A DNA stretch of 64,000 nucleotides from a virus (Duplodnaviria; Caudoviricetes). The notes beneath the pieces were generated by a model, which saw only the letters and a program-made list of their open reading frames with translations, made no database searches and was not told where the DNA came from. Shown here one piece after another: positions 1 through 64,000 of this stretch (the first letter of the stretch is position 1; each line of letters starts with the position of its first letter). Where the stretch lies: positions 1 through 64,000 of IMG/VR virus record IMGVR_UViG_3300046526_000409. One strand, written 5' to 3'. Both the position numbers and the translations under genes were made by a program.

Positions 1-59
1 GGCACCACGCATGGCGCCCCCGATCGCGCCCAAGATTCGGGCGCGATATGAGAGAGAGT

Positions 60-304
60 GACGCTACGGGTAACGGTGGCGGTACCTCTGTGTTAGCTCT
101 TGCCACCACGTATCCACGGACTGTCTGTCCCCATGCTGTGAAAGCCACGGACGTCCAGTCACGCGCATTTGGTCCCCTCCTATAAGAGTTCGGCGACAGT
201 AGGCAGACTTCACCCCTGTTGCATGCGCGCCCTATCGACACGTCGGTCGATAGTGAGGACCTCTCGGTCCCCGTGCAGAAACGTCGTTACCGTTCCCGTG
301 CGTC
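60..304 (-). ncRNA. Candidate ~245-nt multibranched structured RNA (or structured leader)
   Basis: Closing stem 304-291 with 75-60; internal stems 75-80/102-107, 119-123/156-160, 162-168/223-229, 232-239/246-253; GGACC-GAGA-GGUCC GNRA hairpin at 255-272 on the minus strand; no credible CDS. Confidence 0.55.
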
Positions 305-310
305 TATATC

Positions 311-372
311 CACTGTTGAGTTCTCAAACAACGACCGCTTCCTTTGTACTAACCCTCTCGGGCGTTCCTCCG
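311..372 (-). promoter_or_regulatory. rRNA-leader-like antitermination element (GAGA-loop hairpin plus boxA-like TTGTTTGAGAACTCAACAGTG)
   Basis: Minus strand reads CGGAGGAACGCCCGAGAGGGTTAGTACAAAGGAAGCGGTCGTTGTTTGAGAACTCAACAGTG, closely resembling actinobacterial rrn leaders as recalled. Confidence 0.7.
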
Positions 373-436
373 TGCGGTACTTCCTGCCTGCTTTCCGAGG
401 CTCCGTTTCCGGCGCCCCTTCCTGCTGACAAGGAGA

Positions 437-466
437 AAGCTACGGGGTGCGTAGCGGTAAGCACAA
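437..466 (-). promoter_or_regulatory. Putative principal-sigma promoter, leftward
   Basis: TTGTGC (466-461)-N18-TAGCTT (442-437), upstream of the boxA-like element. Confidence 0.5.
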
Positions 467-728
467 CCCCAATCCGCTTACTAGCTTGCTTCCGTGTGCT
501 GCGTAGCGTTCGGCACCCTCCGTGACCTGCGATGCGTGACCGGCAGTAGTTGATAACTACTTTCCGTGACCACGGGTCGCCGGCGACTCCGGTGTCCCTA
601 TATGCGCCTCTATGTCCGTTTCTCGCGCTGCTCGTCGGCATGCTCAGCAGCTGCTAGGCCGCTCGAAAATCGGGGGGTGCGTAGTGGTCGGCATGCTCCC
701 TACGGCATGCACCACGTAGGGCGTAGGC

Positions 729-945
729 ACGGCTCGCAGCGGCTCACGCTGCCTCGCTACGGCTCACGCTGCCTCGCATGCGCGCCATGCCTCACAGCGG
801 CTCACAGCGGCGCCTAGCGGCTCACGTTCGGCACGCTGCCTAGCGGCGCCTGTAGCGGCTCACAGCGGCTCACGCTGCCTCGCTACGGCTACGGCTCACA
901 GCGGTGCCCGTAGCGGCTCACGCTGCCTCACAGCGGCTCACAGTG
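729..945. repeat. Degenerate ~10-bp periodic tandem repeat (G[GC]CTC[AG]CNNN)
   Basis: Exact GGCTCAC at 741, 761, 799, 819, 857, 867, 893, 915, 935 with GCCTC[AG]C variants in phase. Confidence 0.9.
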
Positions 946-1828
946 GCGCCCGTAGGGAATCCGGGGGCAAGGGGAAGGGTCCGGCACTCTCCCCATACTC
1001 CCCATACACACAGTGAGGCAATGACTACGTTGTGCCATGCTGCGCCGTGCGCACGCTCGGTAGCCAAGAAAGGTACTTTCGCTACTTTCTGCTATGCCGG
1101 CTCTCTGTAACTGCTGACATAGGTAATCCTAAGTAGCTGACGCCTCATTGGTATAGTGCGCCCCCTTGACCGGCCCATGCCTGTGACCTGCGCATATACA
1201 CGTTGAGTAACTCTCTGCGTATCTGACGGTCCGTTTGTCAGGGGGTGGCCCCACGGCCCCGCAACCCTGGGTTGACAGTATCCGTTTACCGAGCGTGACT
1301 ATCGACTTTATGCAGAAAAAGGTGCTGCAAAGGGGTTGACGTGCGCCCTGGTGACACTTTCTCAGTTGGCCCGGCGGGGTTTCCCCAGTTCAGGCCGTAC
1401 CCAAATGGGAATTTGGGAGTAACCCATAAGGTACGAAGACCGGCAGGTGTCACGTACGGGGTGAAACGGGCACGCGCGCGTGCATGAAATGGTATGCAAG
1501 ATCACGCATATTTATTGGTTGGAACGGAAGGGGCGAAAAGGACACCCCCACCCTTAAACGGGCAAAGCCGGCTACAGGCCCCTGATGTGTCATGTAGCCA
1601 CCAGGTTGAGCAAGTCGGACAGTAGCCGTCCGTGACTGGGGTGGGTTTCGCGATTTCGTAGACACAGAGCTACGAAAGTCGTCGAGATGGTCACGCTGGG
1701 CAGTTTCGCACCTGAATGCCGGCGGCGCTGTCGAGTCGGGCAATACGGAGCGTTATTGTGGCGTGCGTCACAGGACAAATGACCGAAAAGGTCGGTGCGC
1801 GCAGGCAGGGCCGGTTACGGTTCCGCGC

Positions 1829-63867: not shown

Positions 63868-64000
63868 ATGAGAACGATTCCCTTCGAAGTCCTCAAGGCC
63901 GAACTGGCTCAGGACCTCAACGCCGGCCGAGCGGAAAACGACCTGCTCGTCAAGAGCGGTCAGGTCGGACGCAGCAGTGATGTGCTCGAAATGGAGCAAC
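63868..64000 (+). CDS. Hypothetical protein, truncated by window end
   Basis: ATG 2 nt after the polymerase stop, open to the end. Confidence 0.5.
   Translation, partial: MRTIPFEVLKAELAQDLNAGRAENDLLVKSGQVGRSSDVLEMEQ

Follow-up and report, generated by a model that had tools for sequence, protein, structure and literature searches.

Why would a provirus carry, close to one end of its sequence, a short block that resembles the leader of a ribosomal RNA (rrn) operon, and what could such a block do for a phage? The block lies in a window of 64,000 nucleotides, the whole stretch of DNA that was analysed. The window begins at base 1 and ends at base 64000 of a virus record of 91,966 bases, which carries the class provirus and is taken here to be a Streptomyces prophage. 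It is transcribed toward the left end of the record, and just 310 nt of the record remain past it. A preliminary description of this DNA had named a series of minus-strand strings at this place, and direct reading of the sequence recovered all of them. The features of the locus are as follows.

466-461, minus strand: -35-like hexamer TTGTGC, with an 18-nt spacer to TAGCTT
439-464, minus strand: inverted repeat GTGC...GCAC in the promoter spacer, with a local hairpin at 455-439
442-437, minus strand: -10 hexamer TAGCTT of the TANNNT type, predicted start near 430
399-416, minus strand: GAAA-tetraloop hairpin CCGGAAACGG in the 5' leader, sequence invariant in 7 relatives
313-376, minus strand: nut-like site with homology to the rrn leader of Streptomyces, 89% identity, 64 nt
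363-352, minus strand: boxB-like hairpin GCCC-GAGA-GGGT, stem kept and loop variable among copies
350-336, minus strand: conserved segment AGUACAAAGGAAGCG, in which AGUA..AAG is invariant in 19 copies; the preliminary description named it as AGTACAAAGGAAGCG
331-311, minus strand: 21-mer with CAACAGTG as its end
321-333, minus strand: boxA-like segment CGUUGUUUGAGAA, resembling the B. subtilis and E. coli boxA consensus
311-327, minus strand: invariant core UUGAGAACUCAACAG(UG), including a boxC-like NusA-site sequence
1-310, minus strand: conserved structured RNA, truncated by the record end, 75-88% identity in 6 relatives

A copy of the host rrn-leader site

Pairwise comparison of window 313-376 with a Streptomyces rrn leader gave 89% identity over 64 nt (E = 1e-20). 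Matches to this segment were found in 111 of 151 Streptomyces genomes, typically at 89% over 63-64 nt, and a matching genome in this sample usually held at least four copies of the block. At all six Streptomyces loci checked, a full 16S gene was located 158-200 nt downstream of the host block. The exact 21-mer was matched in at least 120 actinobacterial DNA stretches, many of them at contig ends, and it stood 74-141 nt upstream of 16S in all five other complete actinobacterial rrn operons that were checked. Both edges of the homology are sharp. In a multiple alignment it begins at CGC(A/C)CGGAGG and stops directly past CAACAG, and outside window 313-376 the flanks are without any rrn-like sequence in alignments and pairwise comparison. 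The preliminary description had placed nearly the same ~60-nt string in the Streptomyces leader and had proposed a comparison with Streptomyces rrn leaders; the significant match confirms this. The further claim that the phage captured a host rrn-leader block is borne out by the level of identity together with the position of the host copies upstream of 16S. In other words, window 313-376 is a phage-borne copy of the nut-like site of the Streptomyces rrn leader.

An Rfam scan found no rRNA gene in the window or in the rest of the record. Because no rRNA gene comes after the block, it is a copy of the signal and not an rrn operon. Neither the window nor the remainder of the record had a match to any Rfam 15 family at gathering score, a permissive scan of window 1-1800 (E up to 10) gave chance-level matches only, and a tRNA scan found no tRNA. 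A near-identity search of phage records with window 1-1500 returned no match, and the short block was found only in the distant mode of the search.

Anatomy of the block

The block was aligned in 19 copies, of which 7 came from rrn, 11 from phages or prophages, and 1 from elsewhere. Besides AGUA..AAG, the string UUGAGAACUCAA.AG.G is invariant across the 19 copies. The invariant core is identical in the aligned copies except for a C to U change in Gilson and a C to A change in the related prophage G177, whose boxC reads CAAAAG in place of CAACAG. The core has a single occurrence in the 64-kb window. The boxB-like hairpin has GAGA, GAAA, or UACG as its loop in different copies, or else a loop of 6 nt at the tip of a longer stem, and the stem in Ibantik carries a C-G to U-A swap.

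The labels boxB, boxA, and boxC are based on a secondary citation and on sequence comparison. The boxA consensus is AUGAUCUUUGAAA in B. subtilis and UGCUCUUUAACA in E. coli (quoted in PMC13753749), and the boxC of the M. tuberculosis rrn leader is a specific site for the KH domains of NusA (PMC2724277). The boxA-like segment reads UGUUUGAGAA in the window and UCCUUGAGAA in Streptomyces rrn. The window form is similar to UCUUUGAAA of B. subtilis and UCUUUAACA of E. coli, a consensus that is not actinobacterial. No other part of the block varies as much among the phage copies as the 5' half of the boxA-like segment, and the 3' half of that segment and the boxC-like part are invariant. In E. coli, the 5' half of boxA contacts NusB/NusE. 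A variable boxA 5' half next to an invariant boxC-like part suggests that the most constrained function of the block may be the docking of NusA, and not boxA action of the classical kind.

In the RNAalifold prediction, the AGUACAAAGGAAGC segment forms a helix with the 5' half of the boxA-like stretch. Pairing in this helix reached 95.5%, compared with 22-56% in slid controls. Compensatory change was seen in only two pairs of the helix, because the block hardly varies. This putative helix is thus compatible with the data.

Promoter and 5' leader

The -35 hexamer has the same position in 7 family members, and its sequence differs in G001 only (TAGTGC). The spacer is 18 nt in all 7 relatives. The -10 hexamer takes the forms TAGCTT, TAGAGT (twice), TAATGT (three times), and TAGTGT, and is always TAnnnT. 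The form TAGAGT also serves as the -10 hexamer in Hydra, in Gilson, and in the rrn promoters of Streptomyces. A scan of window 1-1800 for E. coli-type promoters found no promoter, TTGTGC being weak against the E. coli consensus, and flagged a terminator-like hairpin with a T-rich tail at 455-439. The negative scan does not settle the matter, since the main defining feature of HrdB promoters in Streptomyces is the -10 consensus TANNNT, and their -35 is often not conserved (PMC6344877).

Covariation at the RNA level among the 7 relatives starts just 3' of the -10 hexamer, and this onset fits a start near 430. The GAAA-tetraloop hairpin shows it in the outer pairs of its stem, which change from CG to GC in three relatives and from GC to CG in one. 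Covariation was also found in an outer CCGC/GCGG helix and as a G-C to C-G pair. The leader of the window folds at -39.1 kcal/mol (z = -2.0). TTGTGC-N18-TAnnnT at 466-437 is a probable leftward promoter with a start near 430, as judged from its sequence in the relatives. The leftward promoter that the preliminary description placed ahead of the block is supported by the fixed TAnnnT position and by the covariation downstream of it. The distance from this promoter to the rrn-leader block is about 55 nt.

The inverted repeat in the spacer changes symmetrically in its two halves, with AU to UA and GC to AU changes in three of the 7 relatives, and the spacer stem (455-439) has no U-run directly after it. 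The repeat is probably an operator for a phage-specific repressor, and a terminator is less likely. Symmetric change of the halves is as expected for a putative operator whose specificity differs between phages. No significant BLAST match was found between the window promoter and rrn upstream regions, and the likeness of this promoter to rrn promoters is only suggestive, by way of Gilson and Ibantik. Upstream of the promoter, a 1.2-kb gene-free stretch contains degenerate ~10-bp tandem repeats at window 740-947 (unit AGCGGCTCAC, ~14 copies in three arrays), which may be protein-binding sites.

The block in other phages

The preliminary description had proposed a survey of related phages for conservation. 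A 101-nt query found the block in 85 Streptomyces phage records, and a longer query found it in 70. Thus, the block is not peculiar to the present phage. The carriers fall in at least four unrelated groups:

Likavirus-type phages, ~50 kb (Hydra, Triste)
Gilsonvirus, ~128 kb
Flowerpowervirus, 46 kb
Ibantik

In each group, the block is located in unannotated DNA near a genome end. Every copy examined points in the same direction as a series of small genes, which begin 120-340 nt downstream of it. The flanks of the block are unrelated between the phage groups, and the core is invariant. The Hydra copy has TTGACA-17-TAGAGT ending 37 nt ahead of it, the sole promoter-like site in 1.1 kb, and the Ibantik promoter is TTGACA-N17-TAGTCT. 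In Gilson, ~150 nt more of upstream sequence align with the tandem promoters of Streptomyces rrn. The phage copies share GUG(G/A)A after boxC, which hints that the block spread among phages following its capture. No publication on rrn-leader copies in phages was found in the literature.

Two further sequences of this kind were seen. Hydra has a second partial core copy (AGAACTCAACAGCGG, an rrn-type variant; L002:413-427) ~300 nt upstream of the main copy. Another rrn-leader-like block (88% identity to rrn over 69 nt) is present on contig 43 of G001, on the minus strand at about position 1513 of locus L129. It is not beside 16S and precedes a GC-rich leader of ~230 nt and a gene for a DUF4097 (toastrack) protein.

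The operon downstream

Since the record stops 310 nt past the block, the operon downstream was read from relatives. The left 3.7 kb of the window are colinear with prophages of the Streptomyces genomes G001, G043, and G177 and with three virus records. All four relatives that extend past window position 1 enter one co-oriented ribozyme unit. The ribozyme arrays are these:

G001: 1 pistol and 18 hammerhead II ribozymes, array at L161:5178-16013
G043: 19 hammerheads, array at L163:5063-15361
G177: 3 pistols and 17 hammerheads, array at L176:4113-16518
G402: 2 pistols and 7 hammerheads, as far as its record end, array at L170:3742-9597

A circular-permutation reading of L170, with the phage body following the array, was rejected, as L170 is simply the end of its record.

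In the relatives, the operon consists of ~11 kb of single-gene cassettes separated by ribozymes, with one ORF per gap between ribozymes. The cassette junctions are uniform: a stop codon, ~8 nt, a ribozyme, ~12 nt, the same strong ribosome-binding site, and ATG. One cassette encodes ArdA (E = 1e-25), and nine other cassettes tested had no match in Pfam or PHROGs. Cassette content is variable, as 60 cassettes fall into 26 families, 10 of which occur in a single array only. Prophage genes flanked by hammerheads, ardA among them, were already known (Perreault et al. 2011, PMC3088659).

The first gene starts 0.7-1.1 kb after boxC in G001, G043, G177, and G402. The long untranslated transcript envisaged in the preliminary description is therefore found in part. 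The first 0.7-1.1 kb are untranslated in the relatives, but ~11 kb of protein genes come after it in all four. No consensus promoter was found on the operon strand within the unit. Terminator-like sites in the operon are at chance level, and there is no clear intrinsic terminator downstream to override. A search inside the arrays for a second nut-like block or for boxA-like sites, such as rrn operons have, found none; there is one per operon. Two independent Streptomyces hammerhead II arrays, in G129 (L187, G129:C34:59734-68524, 9 copies) and in G003 (L188, G003:C9:174554-175367, 3 copies), have no rrn-leader block upstream. This indicates that the pairing of leader and array is specific to the present phage family.

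The conserved RNA and a 16S-like piece

The RNA of window 1-310 is more conserved than its flanks among 6 relatives, and it is not shared by the other phage groups. It was considered as a diverged remainder of the leader plus 16S nt 1-100, and this candidate was rejected because no similarity was found. In G177, an insertion of ~190 nt closed by an inverted repeat (L176:3140-3340) sits exactly between boxC and the conserved downstream RNA.

Directly after the 310-nt RNA, the G001 and G043 prophages contain a 219-nt 16S-like fragment (L161:4423-4641 and L163:4081-4299, respectively). It matches positions 101-347 of the Rfam bacterial SSU model with 127-130 bits. Several of its helices are shortened with pairing preserved, and a 114-nt core is 88.6% identical to Streptomyces 16S. 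The fragment is 98% identical between the two prophages, whereas their flanks are only 74-88% alike. The spacing from block to 16S-like fragment is 310 nt, compared with about 260 nt in the rrn operon, and the order is the same. Nothing rrn-like lies between the block and the fragment. G177 and G402 are without the fragment, a full 16S follows the block in none of the 7 relatives, and neither the 16S-like piece nor the 310-nt RNA turned up again in a search of viral and metagenome contigs.

The ends of three virus records, the present one included, fall no more than 1-2 nt from the fragment start, and one virus record without the fragment is not cut at that point. The coincidence of the record ends with the fragment start suggests that these records were trimmed at an rRNA call. 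The present prophage thus probably has a 16S-like piece just beyond window position 1. The earlier statement that no 16S sequence follows the block is correct for the window itself. It is probably an artefact of where the record stops, as only 310 nt remain past the block, and a 16S-like fragment is present there in two relatives.

How might the leader act?

How would a copied rrn leader serve the phage? We infer both Nus binding and anti-termination, and it is fairly probable that the block confers rrn-type anti-termination by host Nus factors alone. Transcription would begin near 430 from the promoter at 466-437, and the nut-like site would emerge in the nascent RNA. The site would recruit the factors of the host rRNA operons, with NusA on the invariant core and NusB/NusE on boxA, followed by NusG. 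The RNA polymerase modified in this manner would resist Rho and pausing. It would be carried through 0.7-1.1 kb of untranslated structured RNA, where exposure to Rho is greatest, and so reach a long operon at the prophage end. If the present prophage is like its relatives, that operon would be the ~11 kb of ribozyme-separated cassettes, one of them for ArdA. Such a device would be active as soon as expression starts and without a phage protein like lambda N, since host factors would suffice. This anti-termination reading agrees with what is established about boxA and boxC and with the observations on the block: its identity with the host site, its position after a conserved promoter, its orientation in line with a long operon, and its recurrence in several lineages. 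Counting against it are the negative E. coli-type promoter scan, the lack of a clear intrinsic terminator downstream, the variability of the boxA half that contacts NusB/NusE in E. coli, and the two independent hammerhead arrays that have no such leader. Self-cleavage at the first ribozyme would cut the RNA tether to the polymerase, so the protection may cover only the untranslated leader, and a single site per operon may likewise mean protection limited to that leader.

A more extended model is that the leader forms the front of a pseudo-pre-rRNA, made of the rrn signal, the 300-nt RNA, and a miniaturised piece of the 16S 5' domain. The host machinery for rRNA transcription and early 30S assembly would be engaged. 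It would either launch the ribozyme-processed anti-defence operon at time zero or divert ribosome-biogenesis factors. We consider this model rather unlikely.

Other explanations for the block have to be weighed against anti-termination. One is that it is a device for RNA folding or processing, on the view that the rrn complex is mainly a co-transcriptional chaperone and that anti-termination is secondary. The 5' leader would be held at the polymerase while the RNA of window 1-310 folds and is excised like pre-rRNA; a long-range helix beginning immediately 3' of boxC would close this RNA. A highly conserved structured RNA does begin immediately past the block, and two relatives carry a structure-preserving 16S-like sub-domain in rrn order and at comparable spacing (310 against about 260 nt). 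However, in the other four phage groups the block precedes ordinary small genes and unrelated downstream sequence. A role specific to the 310-nt RNA therefore cannot explain the conservation of the block, and we regard folding as its main role as unlikely, although folding and anti-termination are compatible and can coexist. Alternatively, an abundant leader RNA could act as a decoy that titrates NusA, or NusB and NusE, from the host rrn operons and lowers rRNA synthesis. The match to host sites is near-exact, and the Hydra copy stands behind a near-consensus promoter, so a large output is possible. Yet a decoy has no need of a sense-oriented position at the head of an operon, which every copy examined has. 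The element, moreover, belongs to a temperate prophage, and there is one copy per genome. We judge a decoy to be distinctly unlikely.

The phage might instead mimic the expression level of rrn, through strong initiation coupled to growth rate or through RNA stability, with elongation unchanged. This would account for Gilson, which also copies the rrn tandem-promoter region, and would agree with the TAGAGT -10 hexamers shared with rrn promoters and with the HrdB dependence of all Streptomyces rrn clusters (PMC6344877). It is highly improbable in view of the window family, where the promoter lacks significant rrn similarity and yet the transcribed block is 89% identical, and in view of the invariant part, which is in the RNA, well 3' of the start site. 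The folding, decoy, and expression-level explanations are not mutually exclusive. Finally, could the block simply be host rrn DNA at the edge of a provirus call, or a relic that recombination left behind without a function? A pipeline set the limits of the record, one of which is only 310 nt away, and a 16S-like piece follows the block in two relatives. Nevertheless, its phage-specific flanks are colinear in 7 relatives from different hosts, none of which has a full 16S, true host leaders have other flanks, and the block is conserved in the genomes of free lytic phages. Host DNA or a relic is thus an extremely improbable explanation.

Anti-termination by host Nus factors, the reading that we prefer, would have consequences beyond this locus. 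If it is true, many actinophages (at least 85 records) would achieve termination-resistant early transcription via host factors alone. To our knowledge, rrn anti-termination in Actinobacteria has been little studied, and the block is a simple natural test bed for it, being short, placed ahead of non-essential genes, and available in tractable hosts. In this phage family, the element also heads a variable array of ribozyme-delimited cassettes with an anti-restriction gene, which would tie transcription control to an anti-defence hotspot. If the pseudo-pre-rRNA model were true, rrn mimicry by actinophages would exceed boxA and amount to a general, undescribed strategy of host takeover.

Relation to known systems

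Most of what is known of processive anti-termination in phages comes from systems of the lambda type, which require a protein of the phage, and from a small number of RNAs that act by themselves. The nearest relative of the present block is the nut-like site of actinobacterial rrn leaders, in which a hairpin, a boxA-like part, and a boxC-like part likewise follow one another in this order soon after a promoter. It differs from the phage block in that an rRNA operon follows, whereas the phage block has none and its flanks are phage sequence. The sequence after boxC differs as well (GUGGA or GUG(G/A)A in phage copies, GCGUGCC in Streptomyces rrn), and the phage copies, unlike the actinobacterial rrn-leader site, tolerate variation in the 5' half of boxA.

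The nut sites of lambda render the polymerase termination-resistant through host Nus factors. Like the present block, nutL and nutR are leader RNA sites of a phage, with a boxA related to the host rrn boxA. In lambda, boxA comes before boxB, whereas in the present block the hairpin comes first, as in rrn. Phage N bound to boxB is required in lambda, but the hairpin loop of the present block varies (GAGA, GAAA, UACG, or 6 nt). The copying of a whole host site implies that no phage protein is needed. The put RNAs of HK022, like other anti-terminator RNAs that are independent of factors, are also phage leader RNAs that act without a phage-encoded protein. The put RNAs act directly on the polymerase via a two-hairpin fold of their own and, unlike the present block, bear no likeness to the host rrn leader.

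An rrn-type boxA outside rRNA operons has been described for suhB and for CRISPR arrays in Gammaproteobacteria, where it blocks Rho (PMC13753749). These sites likewise stand ahead of a long or poorly translated transcript. They are chromosomal and consist of boxA only, in contrast to the present block, which is carried by actinophages and comprises the full hairpin-boxA-boxC arrangement. As to the operon, the Agrobacterium example of Perreault et al. 2011 (PMC3088659) has one gene between ribozymes, ardA included, like the operon of the relatives. The arrays of the relatives differ from it in being much longer (17-20 ribozymes), in their uniform ribosome-binding sites, and in their rrn-type leader. 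Thus, anti-termination sites that use Nus factors are known from rrn and nut, and what is new here is that phages borrow the whole rrn site of the host.
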